A DNA stretch of 42,197 bases, taken from sequence record MN850568.1; one strand, given 5' to 3'. Of this stretch, positions 3,404-42,197 are shown piece by piece. The position numbers and the translations under genes were made by a program. The stretch is from Escherichia phage altidsur. The notes beneath the pieces were generated by a model, which worked only from the letters and a program-made list of their open reading frames with translations, ran no database searches and had not been told where the DNA came from. How positions within the stretch are numbered: position 1 is the stretch's first letter; each line of letters opens with the position of its first letter.

Positions 3404-5775
3404 TGGCGAACAGCTATAACACCTACGTGGCGAACGGGACGCAGACTGCGTTCCTCGTCACCTTTGAGCAGCGCGTATTTACGCAGATTCAGGTGTACCT
3501 CAACTCCACACTCGTGACGGAAGGGTACACCTACAACTCTGTGACCAAACAGATTGTCTTCTCGACAGCACCTGTCGCCGGGACAATCGTACGCCTGCAA
3601 CGCTACACCTCTGAGACGCTGCTTAACAAGTTTGGTCAGGACGCTGCCTTCACGGGCAGCAACCTCGACGAGAACTTCGAGCAGATTCTGTTTAAGGCTG
3701 AGGAAACTCAGGAGGCATGGCTCGCGCCGCTCGACCGAGCAGTCCGTGTCCCGAACTCCGAAGTCTCCATCAACGCATTACCGAACGTCGCTGGCCGCCG
3801 TAACAAGGCATTGGGCTTTGACAACGCTGGTCAGCCGTTCATGATTCCTCTGGTTGATATTCCTGACTCAGCTCTGGCCATTGCGCTGGCGATGAATGAC
3901 GGCGGTAAGTGGATTGGCACCCTTGGCGGTGGTACGTTCCTCGACCGTCAGGACACTGTGTGTCTGTCAGAGTTCACCAACAACACTGGCTATGCGTCCA
4001 TCGCTGCCGCTGTGCAGGCATGTTTCGACTATGCCAAGGCAAACGGTAAGGTTGTGGATGCACGCGGCTGGGAAGGCACTGTGGACTCCACGGTGACAAT
4101 GGATGGTATTGAGGTCGTCGGCGGTACGTGGCACGGTAAGGCAGATATTCGACTGATTGACTCAACGTTCCGCAACTTCAAGGCATCCACTGTGCGTGTG
4201 GCGTACTGGGGTGGCAAGGTTCGCATTGCTGACTATGAGTTCACCAGTGCGCCGAGCAACTCCAAAGTTACGTCAATCCTGTTCCAAGGCAACATCGCCG
4301 GGGGCAGCTACGTAATCGAGAACGGTATCCACCGTAACGGCAAGTTCGGTATTCTGCAACAGGGTACTGGTGAGGCTATCACCAATGGCATTATCCGCAA
4401 CGTCGCTATGATGGACATGATGGGTGATGGCATTGAGATGAACGTAATCAACAAGCACTATGACGGTGGCCTGCTGATTGAGAACATCTACCTTGAGAAT
4501 ATCGACGGCACCAACGCACCTATTCCACTGTCCAACTGGGGCATCGGTATCGGTATCGCTGGTCAAGGCCCGTTCGGTTGGGACGCTGCTGAGACTCAGT
4601 ACGCGAAGAACGTGACCGTGCGTAACGTCCATGCTCCGCGCGGTGTACGTCAGGTTGTCCACTTCGAAGTTACCCGCGACAGCGTGTGCGAGAACGTGGT
4701 CTGTAACCCTGACCTGTCCGTGTCCACTGGTACTGGCCTGTCTGCTGCTGGCGTAATCACGTACGGCTGCAAACGCATGACCATTGATGGCGTGGTTGGT
4801 GAGCCTATCAACACAGGTGCAACCTCCCCTAACGATATTCGTCTCGTTATGCTGGAGTGGGGTGCTAACCAAGCAGGTGCTGGCGGTACGCCGGGTGCTG
4901 CGTGTCCATCTTTTGACATGACCGTGCGCAACGTGCAGACCCGCACCGGGCGCTTCTATGCAGGTGTCGGCTCCGACGACGATAACACCAACACGTACCA
5001 CCTTGAAAACATTCACTGTTACAAGATGACGCTGTTCGGTGTGGCTACTCTGCTGAACATGACCAACGTTACTGGTGTCGTATTCGACGCAGTTGGCGAT
5101 GACTCCAGCGGCGGTACTTCGTCCAACGGTGTGTACCCGCGTAAGAAGACGTGCCTTAACATGGTGAACGTGAACTTCTACGGGCCGGGTATGACCGAGG
5201 GTGCGCTGTACAGTAAGGCTCGGTACTCGGACATCAGTACGCTGAACTCCAACGTCCGTGCAATCCCGTACACCAACATCCAAGGTAACGTTGGCGCTAT
5301 CCTGTCTCCAGTGAACCGCATCCTGACGCTGCCAAACAACTTGGCAACGCTGACAGGTGCTGAGTTCCCGACTGGTAAAGAGTTCCCGGAAGGTACTGTC
5401 CTGCTGAAAACTGATGGTTCTGGTGGTAACTTCATCGTCACCCAGTTTGGTGCCTACATCCCTAATGATGGCAACAACTTCAAGGTGCGTGCTGCTGCCG
5501 CTGGCCAGACGTATCTGGAGCAGAACCTGACTCCGGCTGGTACTCAGGCATCCACCTCGTGGCTGTACCACAAACCAATCTCTGCTGGCACCCGGTTGAA
5601 CATCCCCGGCGCTGGGCCGAGTGGCGGTACACTGACTGTGACGGTGGTGCGTGCTCCATATCAGGTGGACAACAACATCGGGAACCCGGTGCGCATCGAC
5701 ATCACACCGCCGCTGGTGACTGCTATCCCTGCCGGGACGCAGCTCGCCGCGACTTATCCGGTGGCTTACATCTAA
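3403..5775 (+). CDS. Tail fiber/tailspike protein with T7 gp17-like N-terminal anchor and a beta-helix (depolymerase-like) body
   Basis: The first ~150 aa resemble the conserved N-terminal adaptor of T7-type tail fibers by eye; the rest is Gly/Asn/Thr/Val-rich with repeated G-x-hydrophobic strands typical of right-handed beta-helix spikes; position after the internal virion proteins. Confidence 0.75.
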   Translation: MANSYNTYVANGTQTAFLVTFEQRVFTQIQVYLNSTLVTEGYTYNSVTKQIVFSTAPVAGTIVRLQRYTSETLLNKFGQDAAFTGSNLDENFEQILFKAEETQEAWLAPLDRAVRVPNSEVSINALPNVAGRRNKALGFDNAGQPFMIPLVDIPDSALAIALAMNDGGKWIGTLGGGTFLDRQDTVCLSEFTNNTGYASIAAAVQACFDYAKANGKVVDARGWEGTVDSTVTMDGIEVVGGTWHGKADIRLIDSTFRNFKASTVRVAYWGGKVRIADYEFTSAPSNSKVTSILFQGNIAGGSYVIENGIHRNGKFGILQQGTGEAITNGIIRNVAMMDMMGDGIEMNVINKHYDGGLLIENIYLENIDGTNAPIPLSNWGIGIGIAGQGPFGWDAAETQYAKNVTVRNVHAPRGVRQVVHFEVTRDSVCENVVCNPDLSVSTGTGLSAAGVITYGCKRMTIDGVVGEPINTGATSPNDIRLVMLEWGANQAGAGGTPGAACPSFDMTVRNVQTRTGRFYAGVGSDDDNTNTYHLENIHCYKMTLFGVATLLNMTNVTGVVFDAVGDDSSGGTSSNGVYPRKKTCLNMVNVNFYGPGMTEGALYSKARYSDISTLNSNVRAIPYTNIQGNVGAILSPVNRILTLPNNLATLTGAEFPTGKEFPEGTVLLKTDGSGGNFIVTQFGAYIPNDGNNFKVRAAAAGQTYLEQNLTPAGTQASTSWLYHKPISAGTRLNIPGAGPSGGTLTVTVVRAPYQVDNNIGNPVRIDITPPLVTAIPAGTQLAATYPVAYI

Positions 5776-6090: not shown

Positions 6091-7850
6091 TGGATTTACA
6101 ACGCCGCATGGTGATGGCAGGAATCGTTCGCGCCCACTACGAGAACAACTTCCCGCTGTTCCTGCATGACTACTTCGCATGGCTGGGCTTTGACCTCACT
6201 GAAATGCAGCTCGACATTGGCCGCTACATGGCCGACAGGACGCTCAAGAACAAGTGCGTCATGGCGCAGCGTGGTGAGGCTAAGTCCACCATCGGTATTG
6301 CCCGTGCTCTATACGAATTTGTGCAGATGCCAAACGCCACTGTGCTGCTGGTATCCGGTTCGGATGACTATGCTGGCACGCTCTCGCACGCTATTGTGTC
6401 TGCCATCATGCAATGGGACAGACTCGAATGGCTGCGCCCGGAGACTCGCGCTGGCGCACGTACGTCATACACTGACGGCTTCGACGTGCATCACGCGTTC
6501 CGTATCCCTGACAAACAGCCCTCTGTAAAAGCGGTCGGTATCTTCGGCCAGTTGCAGGGGAACCACGTATCGCTGTTGATTGCCGATGACGTGGAGACTA
6601 CCAGTAACGGTAGCTCTCCAGCCAACCGCGCCCGTATCAACACCCTGACCAAAGAGTTCGCGGCTATCGCCAACGATGGTGCAGAGATTCTGTACCTCGG
6701 CACTCCGCAGACTCAGGACTCCATCTATAACACGCTCCCGCAGCGTGGCTTCGACGTTCGTATCTGGCCCGGTCGTTTCCCTACGCCGGAAGAAGAAGAA
6801 CGGTACGGCGGCTGTCTTGCCCCGTGGATTAAGCAGAAGATGGAAGGCCACCCGGAACTGCGTACTGGCTACGGTATCCTTGGGAACCGTGGTGCTCAGA
6901 CTGACCCTCAGCGTTATTCTGAGGAGAAGCAGCTCCAGAACGAACGAGATTATCAGCAGGCAGGCTTCCAGTTGCAGTTCATGCTGGACACGTCGCTGTC
7001 TGATGCGCTCAAACAAACGTTACATCTCAGAGACTTAATCTTCTTCCACGGCTCTACGCAGTCTGCGCCGGAGGTTCTGCATTGGTCTAACCACCCGCGC
7101 CATGCCGCCGAGCTGCCACTGGATTTCCCACTTGCTCGCGCTCAGCTATTCTTGGCTGCTGACTTCTCGGACACGTATGTACCATTCGAAAATACCTCGG
7201 CGTTTCTTGACCCTGCTGGTGGTGGGTCGGACGAATCAGTTATCATCGCCACAGCTTCTGTCGGCCCGTTTATCCACGTCATTGGTATGCACGTCTACCA
7301 CGGCGGCCAGACGGAGGAGAACATCAAGGCGGCGGTAGAGTGGCTGTCTGAGGTCGGCGTTAAGCGGCTGGTCATTGAGGATAACATGGGCCACGGAACC
7401 GTGACCAACATGTACCGAGGTGAGATTAAGCGGCAGGGCTTGACCATTGGCTGCGAAGGCGTGTACTCGTCCGGCCAGAAAGAGGTGCGTATCATCAACC
7501 GCCTCGGCCCAATCATGCAGCGCCACCGTGTCGTTGTGCATTGGTGCGTTGTTGAAGAAGACCTGCGGCTGTGCCGGGGGATGAATAACGGTGGTCGCGA
7601 GTTCAGCCTGTTCTGGCAGCTCCAGAACCTGACACAAGACCGTCAATCAATCCCTCATGATGACCGTATTGAAACCCTATCTGCTGCCGTGTACCTGCAC
7701 GCTGAGGTGCTACAGCAGGACGAACATGAAGAAGCTGCCAAGCGCGAGACTGCTGCTGCACGAGAGTTCCTTGCCAACCCCATGGGTTACGACGACTCGA
7801 AGTGGCGCAGCCATAAGCCTGTGCGCGGCGTGCGACGGAGACTACGTTAA
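6090..7850 (+). CDS. Terminase large subunit (DNA maturase B), 586 aa
   Basis: Same length as T7 gp19 (586 aa); ATPase-like segment (LLVSGSDD...LLIADDVETT) followed by a nuclease-like C-terminal half; position after the tail fiber and small terminase. Confidence 0.85.
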   Translation: MDLQRRMVMAGIVRAHYENNFPLFLHDYFAWLGFDLTEMQLDIGRYMADRTLKNKCVMAQRGEAKSTIGIARALYEFVQMPNATVLLVSGSDDYAGTLSHAIVSAIMQWDRLEWLRPETRAGARTSYTDGFDVHHAFRIPDKQPSVKAVGIFGQLQGNHVSLLIADDVETTSNGSSPANRARINTLTKEFAAIANDGAEILYLGTPQTQDSIYNTLPQRGFDVRIWPGRFPTPEEEERYGGCLAPWIKQKMEGHPELRTGYGILGNRGAQTDPQRYSEEKQLQNERDYQQAGFQLQFMLDTSLSDALKQTLHLRDLIFFHGSTQSAPEVLHWSNHPRHAAELPLDFPLARAQLFLAADFSDTYVPFENTSAFLDPAGGGSDESVIIATASVGPFIHVIGMHVYHGGQTEENIKAAVEWLSEVGVKRLVIEDNMGHGTVTNMYRGEIKRQGLTIGCEGVYSSGQKEVRIINRLGPIMQRHRVVVHWCVVEEDLRLCRGMNNGGREFSLFWQLQNLTQDRQSIPHDDRIETLSAAVYLHAEVLQQDEHEEAAKRETAAAREFLANPMGYDDSKWRSHKPVRGVRRRLR

Positions 7851-9575: not shown

Positions 9576-10111
9576 TGACTAACTTTGAAATCTGTATGCG
9601 GTTCACCGGGCTGGCAGAAGGCGGTTACGCCAACCTGCCCGGAGACACCGGAGGGGAAACGAATCATGGAATTAGTGACGCTCGTGATGGAAAGCTGGAT
9701 GGTAGAGCTTGCGGTGTCCCTACTGGGCTTGGCGGCACTATTTGTGTGCCTATCCGCAACCTCACCAAAGCGCAAGCCGAAGCAATCTATCGACGGGACT
9801 ACTACAGCCCCATCCGAGGTGACGAGCTTCACCCTGCGATTGCATGTGCCGTGTTCGACTACGGCGTTAACTCAGGTGTCTCCCGTGCGGCGAAAGCTCT
9901 ACAGCGGGTATGCGGCGTTGCACAAGACGGGGTTATTGGCCCTGCTACCGTGGCAGCAGCCAAACGTCTGGAACCTCACTCCGCAGCAGCAGCCATCTGT
10001 GACCTTCGTATTGCGTTCCTAAAGGCTTCTACAGCCCCGACAATCGTTCGGTATAGGGATGCCTTGGTAGCTCGTGCAAAACGCTGTAGCGACTACTGTG
10101 CGACGCTGTAG
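9575..10111 (+). CDS. Endolysin, GH108-type muramidase with C-terminal peptidoglycan-binding-like region, 178 aa
   Basis: N-terminal motif LAEGGYANLPGDTGGETNHGIS and downstream IYRRDYY match the GH108 signature (EGG...DPGG.T..GI...YxxDYW) read by eye; no N-terminal TM/SAR segment. Confidence 0.8.
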   Translation: MTNFEICMRFTGLAEGGYANLPGDTGGETNHGISDARDGKLDGRACGVPTGLGGTICVPIRNLTKAQAEAIYRRDYYSPIRGDELHPAIACAVFDYGVNSGVSRAAKALQRVCGVAQDGVIGPATVAAAKRLEPHSAAAAICDLRIAFLKASTAPTIVRYRDALVARAKRCSDYCATL

Positions 10112-10320
10112 GGGCTATCGAAAGCTGGAGCATTGAACAGGCCGTGGGGAGCAATACCCCCGGCTTGAAAATTGCATGTTTATAGTTGCCCCTCCCTCGA
10201 CCCAAATGACCGCGCGTACCCCCATGACGTGTGCGCGGATTAGCCTCGCGACGTGCGCGATATTGCCTCGCGTGTGCTGCGCGGCGCGTCAAGAGGATTG
10301 CCTGCGTGCGGTATAGCTCG

Positions 10321-10710
10321 TGCGTGTCGCGTTTCACTATCGCCGCGCGGTGCTGTCCTGCTGGCTGGCTGTGTGCCTGCTGTGTGGGCTATCGGTGGCG
10401 GTGTGGTGCTGTCCTATTGGGGACGCTCTGCGCTGGCTGCGTGGTGCTGCTGGCTGCGCGTGGTCGGTCGGGTATCTGTCTCTTTTCGTCGTGGTGTGTG
10501 GTGCTGGTGTGTAGCGGTGTGCGGCGTGGTGCTGCCGTCCTGCTGTGTGGTGTGCTGGTCTACTGTCTGCGCCTGCCAGCTCTGCGCGTCATGCTCTGCT
10601 ACTGTCTCTTACTGTCCTACTGCCTTCACTGTCTGCCGTCTGTCAGTCCTACGGTCTGCCATCCGTCATCCGTTCGGCGCTCGCTTGTTTCGGCTGCGCC
10701 GCGCTCGCTC
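10321..10710. other. A-depleted (G/T/C-only) strand-asymmetric tract; candidate genome-terminus / terminal-repeat-associated region
   Basis: By manual count roughly twenty A residues in ~390 nt on the + strand. Because every stop codon contains A, all three + frames stay open, which produces the overlapping Cys/Arg-rich ORFs in the track. Sits between the last late gene and the early promoters. Confidence 0.6.
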
Positions 10711-10730
10711 TGCGTATCTAGCGATACTAT

Positions 10731-10752
10731 ATCACTATAGACACTTTCATAA
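10731..10752 (-). promoter_or_regulatory. Copy of the 22-bp phage promoter-like motif ATGAAAGTGTCTATAGTGATAT, inverted; + strand reads ATATCACTATAGACACTTTCAT
   Basis: Reverse complement is identical over 22 bp to 31211-31232; contains the CTATAG core reminiscent of the CACTATAG core of T7/SP6-type promoters. Confidence 0.45.
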
Positions 10753-10757
10753 TTATC

Positions 10758-10856
10758 TAATGATTACAGTAACTTATAACCTATCTGATAACGGTATTCT
10801 ATCCAGTGTTATGATTATCTAATCAAACTTTAATCCTAATGATTACAGTAACTTAT
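10758..10856. repeat. AT-rich direct repeats (20-bp TAATGATTACAGTAACTTAT at 10758-10777 and 10837-10856, plus duplicated ATTATCTAA)
   Basis: Exact 20-bp duplication 79 bp apart, read directly, immediately downstream of the A-depleted tract and the inverted promoter-like motif. Confidence 0.6.
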
Positions 10857-10877
10857 CACTTTTCTTGAAAATAATAC

Positions 10878-10907
10878 TTGCCAATCTGTTTTGGTTTATG
10901 CTGTAAT
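10878..10907 (+). promoter_or_regulatory. Host sigma70-type promoter candidate (TTGCCA-N18-TGTAAT)
   Basis: -35-like TTGCCA at 10878-10883 and the same TATGCTGTAAT -10 box as the next two promoters. Confidence 0.35.
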
Positions 10908-10984
10908 TCATCTCGCCGGACAACACAGCGTTAACGTGTTGGACGGTGTAGGACGGTAACACTGCTCTTTAACAATCTGGTGTG

Positions 10985-11013
10985 TTGACAAGGCAAGCTC
11001 ACTATGCTGTAAT
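10985..11013 (+). promoter_or_regulatory. Host sigma70-type early promoter (TTGACA-N17-TGTAAT)
   Basis: Perfect -35 TTGACA at 10985-10990, 17-nt spacer, TATGCTGTAAT box; one of three identically spaced copies upstream of the early region. Confidence 0.55.
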
Positions 11014-11121
11014 GCTTCCACGTCAGCCAGCAAGCTAAACAGTCATTGATAAAGACGTTAAAACACACGTAGGCAAGCTGGTACGGTTTAACTATCTCAG
11101 AACGGGCGCTGATTAAATCGG

Positions 11122-11150
11122 TTGACAGGATGAAATGAGTATGCTGTAAT
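11122..11150 (+). promoter_or_regulatory. Host sigma70-type early promoter (TTGACA-N17-TGTAAT)
   Basis: TTGACA at 11122-11127, 17-nt spacer, TATGCTGTAAT box at 11140-11150. Confidence 0.55.
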
Positions 11151-11201
11151 GCACACCAGATTGACAGGGCAGCAAGCCAGTCAGTCAGAAGTAAAAAGTA
11201 G

Positions 11202-11230
11202 TTGACACGCTGAATACGATGTGATGTAAT
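11202..11230 (+). promoter_or_regulatory. Host sigma70-type early promoter (TTGACA-N17-TGTAAT)
   Basis: TTGACA at 11202-11207, 17-nt spacer, GATGTAAT box at 11223-11230. Confidence 0.5.
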
Positions 11231-11687
11231 CAGCACCGAGTTGAAAGGTTGCAAAACAACCTGCTCTGAGTGAACGTAAACTGGCCACGTAGTGTCACGG
11301 TCTCATGGGTATCCGGCGCAGCTAGGAACTGGTGAGAGGCATCGCTGAAAAGCAACGGTATTGCAACAATGCTAACGCCGTAGGGGTAGTGCCTGATGCA
11401 AGGGAACGGAGAAGCGCGATAGACACAGCGCAGTATCAGTAAAATCCCAAACGTCTTATAAGGCGCGGAGTGAAGCGGGTAGGTAGGCAAGCTGGTAACG
11501 GTGAGCCGGACTGCTGGAGGACTCCTGAGAGTGGATGCAGACAATATCCACGGCGCGAAATGGGCGGGGCGATTTTTCAGGGTAGTGAATCCGACAAGCC
11601 AATCAATGCCACTTAGTGCAACATGTACGGCGCGTCACAATGGGTTCACTATCCACCTGAAAATAGCCAACAACTGGAGAAATAACT

Positions 11688-12080
11688 ATGTACCGTATCT
11701 ATGCAAGCGCATATCGTCAGGGCAACGCTGAATGTGTTAATCTGGCGCTTCATTGCAAGGCACTGCGAACGGTGCAGGATATGTTCGGAGTGGTTCCGGT
11801 CACACTGACAGGCAAGTTCGACAATGCGTACGAGTTAAGCATGGTCTTTCCTGTCGATGGAATCTACGAAATCAGGCAGGCTGTTAAGCTGTTCTGTAAA
11901 GCATTCGAACAGGACTGCATCATGGTAGTGACCAAAGATGATGATGCAATCTTCATGGATTCACCATATCCGGGCAAGCCTGCTGGCAAGTTCGTCAGCA
12001 AGACTGAGGCCGAAATGGAAGCCGGGCAGCACACCGCTTGGACTTACGATGGTGAACAATTTTGGGTAGTGGAGGCGTAA
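11688..12080 (+). CDS. Early hypothetical protein, 130 aa
   Basis: First ORF after the ~450-nt leader; GGAGA RBS 8 nt upstream of the ATG. Confidence 0.55.
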   Translation: MYRIYASAYRQGNAECVNLALHCKALRTVQDMFGVVPVTLTGKFDNAYELSMVFPVDGIYEIRQAVKLFCKAFEQDCIMVVTKDDDAIFMDSPYPGKPAGKFVSKTEAEMEAGQHTAWTYDGEQFWVVEA

Positions 12081-17183: not shown

Positions 17184-17205
17184 TTATGAAGGTGTCTATA
17201 TTGGC
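17184..17205 (+). promoter_or_regulatory. Phage promoter-like motif copy (TTATGAAGGTGTCTATATTGG), preceded by hairpin 17160-17184
   Basis: Matches the 22-bp motif at 31211-31232 in 17 of 20 core positions; perfect 7-bp stem ATGCCTG/CAGGCAT immediately upstream; precedes the gene at 17223. Confidence 0.4.
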
Positions 17206-17222
17206 CAACGTGAGGATGAAAT

Positions 17223-20196: not shown

Positions 20197-20360
20197 AGGG
20201 TCGCAGCTATCGCCGTTGCTCTTGCGGCGGCAGTCTGCTGGCTGAGCAGACCAAGGGCAAGGCCACTGGCAAGACGCTGGTGATTTACGAGTGTGAAAAG
20301 TGTGGAGTAAAGCAGTATGGAAGAACGCACGTATCGAGCGGCACCCTTAAACCAACGTGA
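20193..20360 (+). CDS. Zinc-ribbon mini-protein (55 aa, GTG start; CxC...CxxC)
   Basis: GTG overlapping the upstream TGA stop; four Cys arranged C-S-C ... C-E-K-C; not in the ORF track. Confidence 0.3.
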   Translation: MKGRSYRRCSCGGSLLAEQTKGKATGKTLVIYECEKCGVKQYGRTHVSSGTLKPT

Positions 20361-20508: not shown

Positions 20509-21181
20509 TGCAGAAGTCAAGCGCGTATGGGCAGAGGACATCTGCCGTCTGCTGCAATCACATGAGCTGAACTTTGTGGTTGCCGGGGGAGGGGCAAGGG
20601 ATACAGCGCTGGGTGTTGAGCCGAAGGACTATGACATCGTGGTCTTCGGTTGGGGTGGGGATGTAAGCCGCGTGGTCGGTAGATTGGAATGGTTGGACAC
20701 CAACCTCGAAGCGTATGCCAAGCAGCACAACCTGCCGTATGAGTACATGCCAAGCTACCACGACGCAGCCGAGGGCGGCGACTTCGGTTCCCGTCTGTAC
20801 GGTGTGTTCAAGCTCGGCCCGGTTGACATCATCATTAGTAAATGTGGCTGCTGGTCACAGGTGCTGAGCGAGTTCGACTTCAACCTGAACCAGTTCTACT
20901 TCCCGTCCAGTATCCCGCGATACTCCGGGCAGTACAGCCGTGACCCCGGTGAGTTCATGGCGTACCCGTACGAGCCGAAGCTAACAGCCGAGGACGTGCA
21001 GTGGTATCCGGCGCTGGCCAGTCTGGTTGAAAGCTACGACGACCTGCTGACTCTCCGTGTCTGCCGACCGGATGCCAGCCTGAGTCGTGTGGCCTACATG
21101 CTGGAGAAGCACGAGACACACCGCGAGCGCATCGAAGCATACGTCAATCGTATGCCAGACCATTTGGGTGGCACAGCATAG
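20498..21181 (+). CDS. Pol-beta-superfamily nucleotidyltransferase-like protein (CCA-adding/poly(A) polymerase head-domain motif), 227 aa
   Basis: Motif VAGGGARDTALGVEPKDYDIVVF fits the GGxVRD...DxD signature of class II nucleotidyltransferases, read by eye. Confidence 0.5.
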   Translation: MISNAEVKRVWAEDICRLLQSHELNFVVAGGGARDTALGVEPKDYDIVVFGWGGDVSRVVGRLEWLDTNLEAYAKQHNLPYEYMPSYHDAAEGGDFGSRLYGVFKLGPVDIIISKCGCWSQVLSEFDFNLNQFYFPSSIPRYSGQYSRDPGEFMAYPYEPKLTAEDVQWYPALASLVESYDDLLTLRVCRPDASLSRVAYMLEKHETHRERIEAYVNRMPDHLGGTA

Positions 21182-28749: not shown

Positions 28750-31182
28750 GTGGACTTACTTGCTGAGCAGATTCGACTTGAAGAAGAAGCACGAGCCAGA
28801 CACCGCGAGGGCTGGCTGGACAATATCAAAGAAGCCATGGCTAGTGGCCGGGCCGGGTCGGTGCCGTTGCTCCAGCGTATGATGGTAGAGGCGTATCCTC
28901 TTGTCGAAGCTGCGATGCAAGAAACCCTGAACGAAACGACCCGTGGGTACGGTGCGCAGTACCGGACGTACATGCGTGAGATTGGCACCAAGGCGTGTGC
29001 CTCTCTTGCACTGAGCATGGCGGTGTCCGGTGCTGCGTCGGAGCAGGCGGTGCTGAGTCTGCTTAAGAGTATGGGTAAAGCGCTGATGGCTGAGGTGGTG
29101 TATCTCCGGGCGAAGCAGACCGGGCCACAGCAGGCAGCGTACATGGAGCGCGTGAAGCAGGACGTTAAGAAGTCCCGGTCGAAGTCAGCCAACCACGTCT
29201 ACAACAAAGCGCGTGCGTCGGCGGCGAACGTTGGGGTCGAGATTGATGTGCTGCCGCAGCGTGCTCTGATTACCATTGGCAAGCTGATGATGAAATGCGT
29301 GGAGCCAACTGGGTTGGTGGCTACGATTCGCGTCGGCGGCAACCAACGTCAGCGCGGTACGGCACACTTCGCACTGCATGAGGATGTGCTGGCTACGATG
29401 AACGACTGGCTGGACATGCCGCGTGCTGATGGCATGTGCTGCCCACCGTTGATTATCCCACCGAAGCAGATTGCACCGAACGGTCGCAGCGGTATGTGGC
29501 ACTCGGATGGGCAGGCGGCGATGTACCGGGTAATGAGTCGCATGAACCACAAAGGGTATCGTGCATTGAACGTTGACCCGACCCCTGTTATAGAGCCGTG
29601 TATGATGCTCAGCAGCGTTCCGTACCGAATTAACCCAATGGTACTGGAGTTCCTGAGAACGAACCGTACAGGCGTTATGGGGCTGCCTGTGCCGCCTCGT
29701 GAGCCTAAGCTCCCATTCACCATCCCGGCTGGTGTCAGCTTCGCGCAGTACATCAGCAAGTTCCCACCAGAGATGCAGCAGCAGATGGATGCCGAGGCTC
29801 ATGAGTACAAGGTTAAGACTCGCTTGTATTACAATGAGTTGCGTAAGTTCACGTCGCAGATGCTGGCGCTGAATGGTGCAGTCAAAGAGGCAGAGCGCTA
29901 TGCGCATTATGACCGGGTATACCTCCCGACCTACGCTGATACACGGGGCCGAATTTATTATTCTTCGACCCTTAACCCTCAGTCCATCGACGCAGTGCGA
30001 GCGCTGCTCGAACTTGCTGAACCAGTGGCTCTCGGAAGTGAGGGGTTATTCTGGCTCAAGGTACATGTTGCGAATTGCTTCGGCTACGACGCGACAGACT
30101 TCGAAGACCGGGCGGCGTGGACGGACAAGACACTCCCCCGACTACGTGAGGCGTGCCGTCTTCCAGAGGCATTTGATTCGTTCTGGTCAGAGGCCGATAG
30201 CCCTATCAGCGCGTGGGCTGCATCTGTTGAACTCATTCGCGCTATCGACTCAGGAAATCCTGCGGCTTATCCCTGCCGAGTGGTTACACAATGGGACGCT
30301 ACCTGTTCAGGATTACAGCACCTCAGTGCGATGTTACGAGATGAGGTTGGAGGTGCTGCTGTCAATCTTATCGACAGCGTGGGAAGAAAAGCAGACATAT
30401 ATCTCAAGACGGCAGCAGCGGCGATGCAGGCTCTTGAAGAAAGTGAGGCAGCAGCGCCGACGCAAATGGGTACGTGGCTTGTTAGCATCGGCATCGTTCG
30501 GGCTATGGCCAAGAAGCCAGTGATGACCTACGTGTACGGGGCAACCCGGCATGGTATGGTTGATTACTACTGCCTGTATCTGCGTGAGAACCGGGTCAAG
30601 CTGCCGGACGGCAAGAGCCTGCTGGAGTGTGCGCAGTTCATCGCAGAGTTCATGTGGAACGCTATCCCTCGCGTTGTGCCGAAGGCGGCTGAGCTGATGG
30701 CATGGTTGCAGGCTATCGCAGTTGAGGCGGCAGCCAACGGCGAGTACGTGGAAATCATCGCACCGTCAGGGTTGCGGGTGGTTAACCTGTACCAAGCCAG
30801 TAAGGAGACGATGCTCAACAACATCAACCTCATGGGTATCCACAGCATTAAGCTGCGTGAGTATCTGGACAAGCCGGACAGCCGGAAGTGTGCTGCTGCG
30901 ATTGCTCCGAATTTCGTACACGCTATGGATGCCAGCCACATGATGAAGGTGCTGTGGGAGATGTGGAACAACGGGGTGTACATGGTATCCATCCATGACT
31001 CGTTCGGTGTTGCGGCGGCACATGCTGGTCTGCTGCATAAGGTCATTCGTGAAAAGTTCGTACAGATGTATGAGCAACATGACCCAATTCAACAGCTTGC
31101 GGTAAGATACAATGCTGTTGCACCAGAACGGGGTAATCTGGACATCCAGCTTGTGAAACAATCAAGCAAGTTTTTCTGCTAA
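28750..31182 (+). CDS. DNA-directed RNA polymerase, T7-like single-subunit, 810 aa
   Basis: Motif WDATCSGLQHLSAMLRD (compare T7 DGSCSGIQHFSAMLRD) and IHDSFG catalytic motif; GTG start; located directly upstream of the structural module. Confidence 0.9.
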   Translation: MDLLAEQIRLEEEARARHREGWLDNIKEAMASGRAGSVPLLQRMMVEAYPLVEAAMQETLNETTRGYGAQYRTYMREIGTKACASLALSMAVSGAASEQAVLSLLKSMGKALMAEVVYLRAKQTGPQQAAYMERVKQDVKKSRSKSANHVYNKARASAANVGVEIDVLPQRALITIGKLMMKCVEPTGLVATIRVGGNQRQRGTAHFALHEDVLATMNDWLDMPRADGMCCPPLIIPPKQIAPNGRSGMWHSDGQAAMYRVMSRMNHKGYRALNVDPTPVIEPCMMLSSVPYRINPMVLEFLRTNRTGVMGLPVPPREPKLPFTIPAGVSFAQYISKFPPEMQQQMDAEAHEYKVKTRLYYNELRKFTSQMLALNGAVKEAERYAHYDRVYLPTYADTRGRIYYSSTLNPQSIDAVRALLELAEPVALGSEGLFWLKVHVANCFGYDATDFEDRAAWTDKTLPRLREACRLPEAFDSFWSEADSPISAWAASVELIRAIDSGNPAAYPCRVVTQWDATCSGLQHLSAMLRDEVGGAAVNLIDSVGRKADIYLKTAAAAMQALEESEAAAPTQMGTWLVSIGIVRAMAKKPVMTYVYGATRHGMVDYYCLYLRENRVKLPDGKSLLECAQFIAEFMWNAIPRVVPKAAELMAWLQAIAVEAAANGEYVEIIAPSGLRVVNLYQASKETMLNNINLMGIHSIKLREYLDKPDSRKCAAAIAPNFVHAMDASHMMKVLWEMWNNGVYMVSIHDSFGVAAAHAGLLHKVIREKFVQMYEQHDPIQQLAVRYNAVAPERGNLDIQLVKQSSKFFC

Positions 31183-31207
31183 TAAATAGTGATATGTATC
31201 ATTGACT

Positions 31208-31233
31208 TATATGAAAGTGTCTATAGTGATATG
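31208..31233 (+). promoter_or_regulatory. 22-bp phage promoter-like motif ATGAAAGTGTCTATAGTGATAT, flanked by direct repeats of TAGTGATATGTATCA
   Basis: Identical over 22 bp to the reverse complement of 10731-10752; partial copies at 17184-17205 and 31498-31519; lies in the gap between the RNA polymerase gene and the structural genes. Confidence 0.5.
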
Positions 31234-31293
31234 TATCACGCTACCGGTAGCCCCGTCAGTGGCGGGGGTTACTGCCACTAAGAGAGGATTGTA

Positions 31294-31497: not shown

Positions 31498-31519
31498 TTA
31501 TGAAAGTGTCTACTATGGG
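31498..31519 (+). promoter_or_regulatory. Phage promoter-like motif copy (TTATGAAAGTGTCTACTATGGG)
   Basis: First 13 core positions identical to the 31211-31232 motif; overlaps the first ATG of the next ORF. Confidence 0.35.
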
Positions 31520-31919
31520 AAATACATCACACACGACAATGCCACTCGACATTCGCCGTGCTGTGGCCGAGGGCATTCAAGCTGAGCGGCCATGGTCTGA
31601 CTTATCTCCCGATGTGATTGTTGACAGCATGTACGAGGCCACCGCCTCCGGTTGTGTTGACGTTTACATCACTGACGATGACGACAGCCTCATGGCCGTT
31701 GCACACATCGGCAGGTTATTCGATATTCATGTGGGCGAGATGGTGGTCGTTATGGCCTCATACGTCTGGCCCCCGTACAGAAACCGTGGAGTGATGCGTG
31801 CCATCCTCCGTGTACTCAAAGACGTGGCCCGTTCAGAGGGTGTACGTTGGTGCGGTTACTCCCATATGGTGCGGCCTTACGTTCAGGAGTACCGCTTCAT
31901 TGATTTGGAGAAACCGTAA
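31515..31919 (+). CDS. Hypothetical protein, possibly GNAT-like acetyltransferase, ~134 aa
   Basis: Motif YRNRGVMRAILRVL resembles GNAT motif A; start placed at the second ATG because the first (31500) lies inside the promoter-like motif. Confidence 0.45.
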   Translation: MGNTSHTTMPLDIRRAVAEGIQAERPWSDLSPDVIVDSMYEATASGCVDVYITDDDDSLMAVAHIGRLFDIHVGEMVVVMASYVWPPYRNRGVMRAILRVLKDVARSEGVRWCGYSHMVRPYVQEYRFIDLEKP

Positions 31920-39796: not shown

Positions 39797-42197
39797 ATGG
39801 CTACTATGCGTGACCAGCGTGGCGCTAACCTTAATGCTGCGCAGCAGGGATTACCAAGTGTGCAGCAGGCGCAGACTCCGTTTAGTCTCGCAGGCCGCGA
39901 TACTCGCATCGACACGTTTCCTACCGAGTCCATTCAACGCGTACTGAACATGGCCAGCGCACTTGCTGGCCGTGTCACTGAGCGTGCGAACGAGGAAGAA
40001 TACCTCAAGGGGGCTAACGCCGCCGCGAGTGGCAAGGCTGTCGAGGATTTGGATTCGAACTGGCTTACCGCTCAGTTCCAGAAAGCTGGTTACAACGACC
40101 AGTACAAACGAATGGAAATGGCGAAGGTCGCCTCAGACATCTCGGCTAACATGCCGCAGTATGCGAAGATGGCACCCGACGAGTTCTTGAAGGTGGTGGA
40201 CGAGAAGACCACTGGCCTGTTCGAGAACACTGATGGTATGACGCTGAACGGGCGTAAGTCACTGCTGGAGAACCAGCTCACGTTCAGCAACACCCTTATC
40301 CGTACGCAGGCTGCCCAGCATGGTAAGTATCTGGTTGAGCAGCGTGCGGCGATGTACAACACGCAGGGTAACACTCTAGTTACTCTGGCGGCTCAGGCCA
40401 AGGCCACTGGCGATGGCGGCGCGTACGCTAACGCTACGGCAGCAACCATGGCATGGGCCAAGTCTATTCTGGCAGACGACAAGCTGCCACTGGAGACTCG
40501 CCGGACGCAGGTGACTTCCATGATGGGGCTGATGCTCCAGCAGGATTTGCGTACCCCGGTCGAGACTGCTGTGAACTCCGGGCTATTCAACGAGCTGCCT
40601 GCCGACGATTTGGCCAAGCTGCAAGGTCAGATTCGTGAATCCAAATCTCGTACTGAGGTTCAGGATAACATGGGTCTGCTGGCGCAGAAGGGTCAACTTG
40701 ATGCGCGTCAGGCAGTATTCGGTGACGTTACGCCGGAACAGTACACGCAGACGCTCCAGCAGATGGTGGACAATAAGCTGATTAGCGCTGGTGGTTTCAG
40801 CTCTGCTATCGAGTCCTTCTACAAGGATTACGCCAAGCAAGCCAAGGCCAGCCAGCTCGGTCAGGCTTACGCCACCGGGAACCAGACGTACATGCTCCAG
40901 CAGGGCGCGAGTGAGCAGGATGGTGCTGACGCATTCATCAAGGCTCGCATGAAGCAACCGGGCGCGACGGCAAGTTCCGTGGCGTTCGACCTGCTGCAAG
41001 TGGGTGCGCAGACTGGCTTCCCTTCTGCGTACAAGTCTGCTGCCAAGTTGATTGAACCATCCCTGTCGAACTTCGGCACCGTGGACGAAATGAACCCGGA
41101 CGCTGCCCGTACCGTAACCGGGCTGATTGACCGCGTAACTGTGGCCGAGAATCAGGGTGACAAGACTGCATGGACTAAGCTCCTGTCAGGTCTGTCAGAA
41201 GAAAACCAAGAGAAGATGGTGTACATGCGCGAGCAGATTAAGGCTGGCCGCACCATCGACCAAGCTGGTCAGGGTTACATCAAGCAGCAGCAGGACTACG
41301 CTGGCTTGACCCCGGCACAGAAATCTCAAATCCTCACGCAGCGTCAATCTGACGTTAACTCTGTGGTGAATGGGCTGGAGGCTCAGGGCTTCCTCTCTCG
41401 CACTTGGCAGGGTCTGGCTGGTCTGTTCTCAGATACTCAGCAGAACCTGTTCCAAGCACGCGTCGCATCTGGTGACATTACTGCCGCGCAGGAAATGTCG
41501 GAGGTGTCTGCCGCGTACCGCGAGGAGCTGCAAGCTGTAGTCCTCAAGAACCCGAACGTGACGAAGGATGGTATGGAAGCACTCGCATCTGCGAAGCTGG
41601 CCAACCGTGTCCTGCGCGTTGGTGAAACCACATTCAGCCCCGGCTCTGTGCTTATCGCACCGAGAGGCCAAACTGTTCAGTCTATGCTCGGCTTGCCTGC
41701 TGACGTAGCCCCCGACCGTATCGGTCGCGCTATCGCCGCACTTGACCAGACCAAGGCACCAGAAGGCTTCGAGTCGTCCTACTCGTTTATGCCAGATGGC
41801 TCTCTGAACGTTCAGTTCTTCAACAAGCAAGGTGACGTTTCCCCGAACTCGGTACGCATTCTGCCGCAGCTCGTGCAGGAACGCATCCGTGAAGACGACC
41901 GTGCAGCAGCCACTGCCAACAACGAAGTGTATGGCGACGGGAAACTCTTTGTTGATAAGACCAGTAACGTGGGTATCCGCGTGAATGGCGTTAATACTGC
42001 TGGGGTAGACGAGCAGCGTATGCTTGTTGCCCGTGGCAAACTGATTGACTTCGAAGGTATCCGCAGCACCACCTATCGCGACAGCACTGGTGTACAGACT
42101 AACGGTGTCGGTATCTCCGACCGTAGCCCGTACTTTGCCCAAGGCCAAGCGTCTGGTATGAAAGGCGGTACTGAGTGGTCGCCGCGAACTATCCACG
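39797..42197 (+). CDS. Internal virion protein B with C-terminal lysozyme-like domain (5' part; runs off the window and appears to continue at 1-296)
   Basis: Uninterrupted + frame from the ATG at 39797 to the window end (800 codons); near the end, FEGIRSTTYRDSTGVQTNGVGIS fits the E-G-x-R...Y-x-D...G...T-x-G-x-G lysozyme motif. phiKMV gp36 is known to carry a C-terminal lysozyme domain. Confidence 0.7.
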   Translation, partial: MATMRDQRGANLNAAQQGLPSVQQAQTPFSLAGRDTRIDTFPTESIQRVLNMASALAGRVTERANEEEYLKGANAAASGKAVEDLDSNWLTAQFQKAGYNDQYKRMEMAKVASDISANMPQYAKMAPDEFLKVVDEKTTGLFENTDGMTLNGRKSLLENQLTFSNTLIRTQAAQHGKYLVEQRAAMYNTQGNTLVTLAAQAKATGDGGAYANATAATMAWAKSILADDKLPLETRRTQVTSMMGLMLQQDLRTPVETAVNSGLFNELPADDLAKLQGQIRESKSRTEVQDNMGLLAQKGQLDARQAVFGDVTPEQYTQTLQQMVDNKLISAGGFSSAIESFYKDYAKQAKASQLGQAYATGNQTYMLQQGASEQDGADAFIKARMKQPGATASSVAFDLLQVGAQTGFPSAYKSAAKLIEPSLSNFGTVDEMNPDAARTVTGLIDRVTVAENQGDKTAWTKLLSGLSEENQEKMVYMREQIKAGRTIDQAGQGYIKQQQDYAGLTPAQKSQILTQRQSDVNSVVNGLEAQGFLSRTWQGLAGLFSDTQQNLFQARVASGDITAAQEMSEVSAAYREELQAVVLKNPNVTKDGMEALASAKLANRVLRVGETTFSPGSVLIAPRGQTVQSMLGLPADVAPDRIGRAIAALDQTKAPEGFESSYSFMPDGSLNVQFFNKQGDVSPNSVRILPQLVQERIREDDRAAATANNEVYGDGKLFVDKTSNVGIRVNGVNTAGVDEQRMLVARGKLIDFEGIRSTTYRDSTGVQTNGVGISDRSPYFAQGQASGMKGGTEWSPRTIH

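Follow-up and report, generated by a model that had tools for sequence, protein, structure and literature searches.

A putative antisense promoter for the phage RNA polymerase near the inferred left genome end of Escherichia phage altidsur

The non-coding left end and the copies of the promoter motif

The sequence record MN850568.1 of Escherichia phage altidsur (42,197 nt on one strand, analysed at full length and referred to as the window) represents a linear Bonnellvirus genome (Autographiviridae) in circularly permuted form, as deduced from its gene order in comparison to J8-65 and glasur, and all its real genes lie on the + strand. Virion, terminase and lysis genes extend to 10111 and are followed by approximately 1.5 kb of non-coding sequence. 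The SAMase gene (11688) comes next, then the genes for early functions and replication, the gene of the RNA polymerase (28750-31182) and structural genes. From left to right, the non-coding region comprises an inferred terminal repeat (10199-~10460), a conserved block, an A-depleted tract, a 22 nt motif which we term P-left, AT-rich repeats and four putative early promoters. In the motif region, matches were obtained to aldrigsur (95%), glasur, RZ4, Kc261 and J8-65, with LIMEzero being more distant. The subject of this analysis is P-left, which is predicted to be a promoter directed against all genes of the phage.

The window holds exactly two copies of the 22-mer ATATCACTATAGACACTTTCAT, one on the + strand (10729-10750) and one on the - strand (31211-31232), and shuffled sequences gave zero matches. 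The original prediction, drawn from the letters of the window, had recognised this exact reverse-complementary pairing and had placed the left copy at 10731-10752, which is 2 nt too far to the right. A 13-mer taken from the - strand of P-left, ATGAAAGTGTCTA, was also present at 31500, and copies carrying 1-2 mismatches were present at 17186 and 2429, in all cases on the + strand; 6 matches to this 13-mer core were obtained compared to 0.6 expected. Scanning the whole window with a position matrix derived from the four sites on the + strand yielded five sites above 27 bits (27-32; 31500+, 31211+, 17186+, 2429+ and 10750-), with the next best match at 9.7 bits. When the twin at 31211 was left out of the matrix, P-left scored 18.5 bits versus a background maximum of 11.0. 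Four of the five copies are in gene sense and situated ahead of gene blocks; P-left alone is opposite to all genes. The candidate promoters and the polymerase gene are as follows:

10729-10750, - strand: putative leftward phage RNA polymerase promoter P-left, reading ATGAAAGTGTCTATAGTGATAT; exact inverted twin of 31211-31232, identified by matrix score and conserved in 13 genomes
17186-17207, + strand: putative rightward phage promoter ATGAAGGTGTCTATATTGGCCA, 3' of a hairpin and ahead of the replication genes, followed by a gene for a small membrane protein and by that of the primase; matrix match and homologue of LIMEzero 7294-7313
28750-31182, + strand: single-subunit RNA polymerase gene (E = 9e-58 to T7 RNA polymerase structures)
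31211-31232, + strand: putative rightward phage promoter, exact twin of P-left, 29 nt past the stop codon of the RNA polymerase gene; matrix match and homologue of LIMEzero 20330-20349
31500-31521, + strand: putative rightward phage promoter ATGAAAGTGTCTACTATGGGAA, overlapping the start codon of a gp36-like open reading frame (ORF); matrix match
2429-2450, + strand: putative rightward phage promoter ATGAGGGTGTCTACTAAGGAAG, within the internal virion protein gene; matrix match

We consider it likely that the 22-mer, read as ATGAAAGTGTCTATAGTG, is the promoter of the phage's own single-subunit RNA polymerase and that P-left is the counterpart of P001, the backward left-end promoter of the Pseudomonas phage LUZ19, firing toward the genome end. 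Both the motif family and the co-variation with the polymerase described below agree with the earlier proposal that the 22-mer is a phage RNA polymerase promoter sequence and an inverted copy of the one past the polymerase gene.

Co-variation of promoter core and polymerase, and direction of P-left

Ten whole genomes, comprising the window and nine relatives, were scanned for the motif, and forsur, usur and ROV85 were checked for three copies, namely those at the left end, just past the polymerase gene and on the gp36-like start codon. All five positions carried the motif in the ten whole genomes, except for the virion-gene copy, which was not found by the scan in J8-65 and smaasur. The left-end copy was opposite to the gene strand in 13 of 13 genomes. 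Within one phage the core was identical or near-identical at all sites, including the inverted left-end copy, whereas it differed between phages, with five core types across the 13 genomes (GTGTCTA, GTGACTA, GCTACTA, GTAACTG and GCAAGCA). The segment of the polymerase aligned to the T7 specificity loop (residues 743-758) varied in step with the core, and its flanks were conserved:

Core GTGTCTA in the window, BHUENT7 and Ec1; specificity-loop segment KETMLNNINLMGIHS in the window
Core GTGACTA in glasur, RZ4, forsur and ROV85; specificity-loop segment KEIALNNINLMGIHG in glasur and RZ4
Core GCTACTA in Kc261 and usur; specificity-loop segment KESPM-HLHLMGVHQ in Kc261
Core GTAACTG in J8-65 and smaasur; specificity-loop segment KETTM-GIKLMGVHA in J8-65
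Core GTAACTG / GTATCTG in Lidtsur
Core GGCAAGCA in LIMEzero; specificity-loop segment RETSM-RLNLLGVHA in LIMEzero

As judged from these alignments, core and loop vary jointly, as one would expect if the polymerase recognises these sites as promoters, and the inverted left-end copy is held to the same polymerase specificity as the other copies.

Leftward direction of P-left is suggested by comparison of the two strands. The + strand around 10729 scored at most 0.1 bits against the promoter matrix, and the four gene-preceding sites all read ATGAA.. in the rightward sense. The original prediction had regarded CACTATAG on the + strand as a core of the T7/SP6 type; the string is indeed present, but this functional reading did not hold, the actual promoter probably being ATGAAAGTGTCTATAGTG on the - strand with leftward direction. 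CACTATAG appears on the + strand because the promoter contains the palindrome CTATAG, and it is at chance level in the window (2 found versus 0.87 expected; at least 2 in 22 of 100 shuffles). At the homologous LIMEzero site the + strand reads AATCCTTAGTGCTTGCCTTCAT and lacks CACTATAG, and the full LIMEzero promoter is found on the - strand (634-655). J8-65 reads ACACTACAG at the site homologous to P-left, with the core altered.

Aligning the motif to the T7 promoter gave matches at G-11, T-8, C-7, T-4, A-3 and G+1, and CACTAAGG of LIMEzero resembles the T3 core. A G at motif position 18 is present in all sites of all phages. From the T7 alignment and this invariant G we infer that transcription from P-left starts at motif position 18, corresponding to window position 10733 on the - strand.

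All promoter copies start with ATG. At 31500 this ATG coincides in several phages with the start codon annotated for the gp36-like gene; at 2429 it is read in frame as Met within the internal virion protein gene and is followed by the ribosome-binding-like string AAGGAAGG. A change of the promoter core therefore changes encoded residues at the gene-overlapping copies, which have counterparts at 20741 and 33867 in LIMEzero and at 5664 and 19870 in J8-65. The 31211 promoter is flanked on both sides by TAGTGATATGTATCA (31187-31203 and 31222-31238), and a G+C-rich hairpin, GGTAGCCCCG...CGGGGGTTACT, is situated 3' of it at 31243-31275; 3' of P-left there is a small inverted repeat, GTATC-GCTA-GATAC. 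These elements may form stem-loops at the 5'-ends of the respective transcripts.

The inferred genome end and the sequences flanking P-left

The placement of P-left between terminal repeat and early promoters holds via homology to the J8-65 end and via the cluster of TTGACA-N17-TGTAAT elements. The following features were assigned around it:

10199-10460: inferred direct terminal repeat, present as a single copy in this permutation; homology to J8-65 repeat_region 1-259
10300-10720, + strand: A-depleted tract with 1-5 A per 50 nt, the leftward transcript of which would be U-poor
10473-10488, + strand: conserved block TATCTGTCTCTTTTCG (within GGGTATCTGTCTCTTTTCG, 10470-10488), resembling the class II pause signal of the T7 concatemer junction
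10751-10877: AT-rich spacer from P-left to the first early promoter (75% A+T over 10751-10880)
10758-10777: direct repeat 1 (TAATGATTACAGTAACTTAT), exact only in the window, glasur, ROV85, Kc261 and usur
10837-10856: direct repeat 2, at approximately -76 to -57 of the first early host-type promoter; kept in Bonnellvirus genomes and recognisable in LIMEzero
10878-10907, + strand: putative first early host-type promoter, TTGCCA-N18-TGTAAT with TG upstream; read from the sequence, repeat family TATGCTGTAAT, homologous LIMEzero site annotated as host promoter
10985-11013, + strand: putative second early host-type promoter, TTGACA-N17-TGTAAT; read from the sequence, same repeat family
11122-11150, + strand: putative third early host-type promoter, TTGACA-N17-TGTAAT; read from the sequence, same repeat family
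11202-11230, + strand: putative fourth early host-type promoter, TTGACA-N17-TGTAAT; read from the sequence

The annotated left end of J8-65 (TCGACCC..., 259-bp terminal repeat) aligns to window position 10199, and P-left is situated about 535 bp inside of it. This suggests that the left genome end is at 10199, and it is by this homology that the motif can be said to lie in a terminus region, as originally proposed. The glasur record (MN850583) begins 1 nt inside the inverted promoter (TATCACTATAGTCAC...), which is probably an arbitrary linearisation point and not a physical end.

Between the inferred end and P-left the + strand is strongly depleted of A, with a minimum of 5.6% in 430 nt versus a first percentile of 15.1% for the genome. 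From the inferred end up to the left-end promoter the A content is 5.6-8% here, 7% in LUZ19 and 9% in J8-65; the tracts examined in relatives were J8-65 1-526, LIMEzero 40-633, LUZ19 1-730 and LIMElight 101-300. In KP34, where the left-end promoter is rightward, the tract is only mildly A-poor (16%), and in T7 the tract is G-poor instead. The leftward RNA predicted from 10733 to the inferred end would comprise 535 nt with 8% U and a single UUU run. Possibly, A-depletion excludes palindromic restriction sites containing A/T from the DNA that enters first.

The long ORFs at 10231-10740 and 10253-10822 (+ strand; 169 and 189 aa) look spurious, as a strand almost without A cannot hold stop codons, and the alignments display indels that are not multiples of three. 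The hypothetical proteins annotated there in relatives (forsur_28, Kc261 41017-41556, Lidtsur 41053-41460, ROV85 gp21-23, and glasur_55 on the other strand) are probably not genes.

The block containing GGGTATCTGTCTCTTTTCG is the best-conserved part of the non-coding left end and holds the sole U run of at least 4 in the rightward RNA over 10199-10733. It reads ATCTGTC followed by TCTTTT at 10474-10486, approximately 13 nt to the right of the J8-65 repeat end, and its seventh base differs from the T7 sequence ATCTGTT. T7, the terminal repeat of which is 160 bp long, carries CCCTATCTGTT just past the repeat. In T7 the class II pause signal is ATCTGTT on the non-template strand, with a U-rich tract behind it. 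Any base change in it reportedly abolishes the signal for T7 polymerase (bioRxiv 10.1101/2021.01.11.426313). At the left end of BHUENT7 (PV874197, an unverified record) a tandem duplication of approximately 121 bp includes the pause-like block; this duplication could be either a genuine variant or a terminal-repeat boundary that was assembled wrongly.

To the right of P-left, both copies of the AT-rich 20-mer TAATGATTACAGTAACTTAT described originally were located; exactly 2 exist in the window (10758-10777 and 10837-10856) compared to 0 expected. Their earlier placement downstream of the promoter, as in a T7-type origin, had to be abandoned, as a leftward promoter puts them upstream. At 90% identity the repeats can be followed over 30 nt (10757-10786 and 10836-10865). 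A second repeated piece (10742-10761 and 10804-10823) shows this to be a local duplication with insertion. Repeat 1 has the variant form CTATTGATATCAGTAACTTAT in RZ4, forsur, BHUENT7 and Ec1 and is without recognisable copy in the J8-65 group, while repeat 2 is followed by TGAAAATAAT and then by the -35 element of the first early promoter. On these sequence comparisons, the most economical reading is that the upstream sequence of the first early promoter was partly duplicated beside P-left.

Two other explanations of the 20-mers were examined. By eye, their reverse complement is similar to a J8-65-type core and their + strand to the KP34 promoter TAATGTTACAG, which had raised the idea of degenerate promoters; this was rejected, as they scored approximately 0 bits against the matrix and are unchanged in phages with different cores. 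A reading as origin iterons or host-factor sites found no support in view of the presence of two copies only, the lack of repeat 1 in the J8-65 group, and the absence of exact IHF (WATCAANNNNTTR) or DnaA (TTWTNCACA) consensus sequences from 10721-10860, although an origin function is still conceivable. Between the repeats most relatives carry AATCAAATATTTA, which matches the IHF consensus WATCAANNNNTTR exactly (e.g. glasur 88-100; J8-65 ~620-632), and in the window a 1-nt deletion breaks this match (10822-10834, AATCAAACTTTAA). The repeats also contain the palindrome TTAC-A-GTAA, which is not kept in J8-65.

The four early elements share a near-perfect -35 element, spacers of 17-18 nt, TG at an upstream position and the -10 element TGTAAT within the conserved TATGCTGTAAT. 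Reading of the sequence together with the LIMEzero annotation suggests that they are host-type early promoters. The G at -10 position 2, an unusual base for sigma-70, is nevertheless kept in all copies and in all relatives. A sigma-70/terminator scanner that excludes G at -10 position 2 (TGTAAT) made no calls in 10000-11700. An Rfam scan of 9900-11800 gave zero matches at E <= 1, and the cumulative GC skew follows the gene blocks and is uninformative on the origin.

Possible roles of leftward transcription and comparison with known systems

Once made, the phage polymerase would initiate at 10733 and, moving leftward, copy the A-depleted tract and then the terminal repeat into a non-coding, U-poor RNA. 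RNA of this composition contains no U-tract termination signals and forms stronger kinds of RNA-DNA pairing. On a unit-length genome the RNA would run off after approximately 535 nt, while the template of a replicating concatemer would let transcription proceed, as in LUZ19, in antisense to the terminase and lysis genes. As preferred role we propose convergent transcription at the concatemer junction, which may keep late read-through out of the early region, serve junction processing, or both. What the sequences show is the family of motifs, the way they point, their joint variation with the polymerase and the arrangement of the left end; the start site of P-left, its activity in vivo and this role are inferred.

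A number of points weigh against this interpretation. The + strand reading also fits the layout of a T7-like origin. The window polymerase is only ~31% identical to LUZ19-type enzymes, and the shared layout could be convergent. The terminal repeat of J8-65 is a GenBank annotation, and the J8-65 paper is silent on how the ends were found. T7-type polymerases are said to be able to pass each other head-on (Ma and McAllister reportedly described this in 2009), which weakens a simple roadblock model. Finally, what the LUZ19 authors offer on the function of P001 is a hypothesis only (PMC10914365).

A T7-like origin layout is the basis of an alternative in which CACTATAG on the + strand is a rightward promoter of the T7/SP6 type that, together with the AT-rich region, constitutes a phiOL-like secondary origin or a packaging signal. 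T7 phiOL has the equivalent position (405, before A1-A3), the in vitro-validated KP34 S2 (475-490, +) and the phiKDA1 copy (410) are rightward, and the 130 bp to the right of the motif are AT-rich. Nevertheless, we regard this as very unlikely, given the score of at most 0.1 bits for the + strand, the ATGAA.. reading of the gene-preceding sites, the chance-level frequency of CACTATAG, its lack on the LIMEzero + strand opposite a full promoter, and its replacement by ACACTACAG in J8-65. For an origin or packaging role as such, the sequence speaks neither for nor against. That the motif is not a promoter at all, serving instead as target of strand nicking as in phiKMV relatives, of a DNA-binding regulator or of recombination between inverted copies, is scarcely credible. 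Nick sites were raised as an alternative for the conserved motif of the KP34 group by Eriksson et al. (PMC4411677), and the two 22-mers form an exact inverted pair separated by 20 kb. However, terminator-like hairpins or stop codons come before the sites and gene blocks after them, the motif has a T7-like sub-structure and co-varies with the polymerase specificity loop, and a primary transcript start was mapped at the LUZ19 counterpart (PMC10914365). Recombination between the inverted 22-mers was ruled out, as all relatives are collinear with the window and the segment 10750-31211 is inverted in none. The phiKMV-type nick consensus was at chance level (4 found versus 3.7 expected), which also argues against this explanation.

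A further alternative retains the leftward promoter and assigns a different role to its product: the U-poor transcript would form a stable RNA-DNA hybrid over the terminal repeat, priming leftward DNA synthesis or opening the junction for repeat duplication and cutting, and would thereby mirror T7 phiOR and its pause site. In its favour, A-depletion spans exactly from the inferred end to the promoter in the window, J8-65, LIMEzero and LUZ19, the leftward RNA has the low U content and single UUU run given above, and a conserved junction-pause-like block is situated just right of the inferred repeat; in T7, polymerase paused at the junction starts packaging (PMC3276506). The basis of this proposal is purely inferential, however, and we hold it to be possible but doubtful. 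KP34 and phiKDA1 manage with a rightward promoter, the KP34 tract having 16% A, and the block reads ATCTGTC and not ATCTGTT, the polymerase being a different enzyme; any base change reportedly abolishes the T7 signal. Moreover, A-depletion could serve otherwise, e.g. in excluding restriction sites.

A related and likewise tentative suggestion, which we think rather unlikely to hold in full, is that leftward promoter and A-depleted tract form one conserved module in Phikmvvirus, Bonnellvirus, Waewaevirus and Limelightvirus, genera in which the polymerase gene lies late in the genome. The U-poor, termination-proof RNA of this module would be needed for processing of the concatemer junction, either in repeat duplication or in terminase marking, mirroring T7 phiOR and the junction pause, and would not be a mere insulator.

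The idea that convergent transcription shields the early region from late read-through, part of the role preferred here, comes from the LUZ19 authors. Applying ONT-cappable-seq to LUZ19, Putzeys et al. (2024, PMC10914365) identified four phage-specific promoters: a pair past the polymerase gene, a third within the structural region, and P001, which is located in the early region and points the opposite way. P001 gives rise to antisense transcripts toward the right end, and the arrangement is kept in 15 other Phikmvvirus species; the authors suggested that P001 may stop transcription entering the early genes on the circularized genome, and their paper makes no mention of the A-depleted tract, a repeat or concatemers (PMC10914365). 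In the LUZ19 record, the P001 motif (736-748, - strand) ends a tract of 7% A and lies between the terminal repeat (1-472) and sigma-70 promoters (913-1182). Like P-left, it is a phage promoter opposite to all genes that is positioned between terminal repeat and host early promoters and abuts an A-depleted tract. Common to both phages are also two promoter copies past the polymerase gene and another within the structural region; the window differs in having a fifth copy ahead of the replication genes. In contrast, the promoter sequence of LUZ19 (GgtTATGTCACacACAnnGG) is unrelated, its host and genus are others, and its transcripts were mapped, whereas the window was read from sequence alone. 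In LIMElight (genus Limelightvirus), too, an inverted copy of the annotated phage promoter is situated ~250 bp to the right of the repeat.

The same left-end position is occupied in other phages by promoters of different direction. P-left is near the genome end, as had been noted originally, and occupies the position of T7 phiOL, which at 405 lies just before the host promoters A1-A3 and likewise between them and the terminal repeat. T7 and the window also share a strand-asymmetric tract beside the repeat and an ATCTGT-type block just right of it. Unlike P-left, phiOL is rightward with its AT-rich region downstream, and the T7 tract is G-poor and not A-poor. On a concatemer, P-left faces the repeat from the right, while T7 phiOR faces it from the left. 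T7 A0 (nt 224) resembles P-left in its location near the left end and its leftward direction off the end, but is a promoter of the E. coli host polymerase. In KP34 (Lu et al. 2019, PMC6834552), S2 at 475-490 is an in vitro-validated left-end copy of a promoter that recurs past the polymerase gene and within the structural region. It differs from P-left in its + strand, rightward orientation, as do the left-end copies of phiKDA1 (410) and JG068. A phage promoter between repeat and early promoters is thus general in the family, and its direction alone varies.

For Bonnellvirus, this analysis provides a promoter map with a consensus, a predicted start and five sites, of which database records annotate two at most. 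The LIMEzero record (FR751545) lists 'putative phage specific promoters' at 7294-7313 and 20330-20349, which are homologous and have the same frame (ATnAARG + core + TAWGG); these two rightward sites are its only annotated ones, and the inverted copy at 634-655 and those at 20741 and 33867 are unannotated. Furthermore, the variants of core and specificity loop constitute a small natural set of candidate orthogonal polymerase-promoter pairs.

The backward left-end promoter of LUZ19 is apparently not peculiar to Pseudomonas phages and recurs in enterobacterial genera with ~31% identical polymerases. Wherever this leftward promoter recurs it is tied to an A-depleted tract reaching the genome end, a link that is absent from the LUZ19 paper (PMC10914365). 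This association narrows the possible roles of the promoter and is testable in E. coli K-12, a more tractable host. Altogether, the sequence comparisons suggest that P-left is a new example of an antisense left-end promoter of the LUZ19 P001 type.

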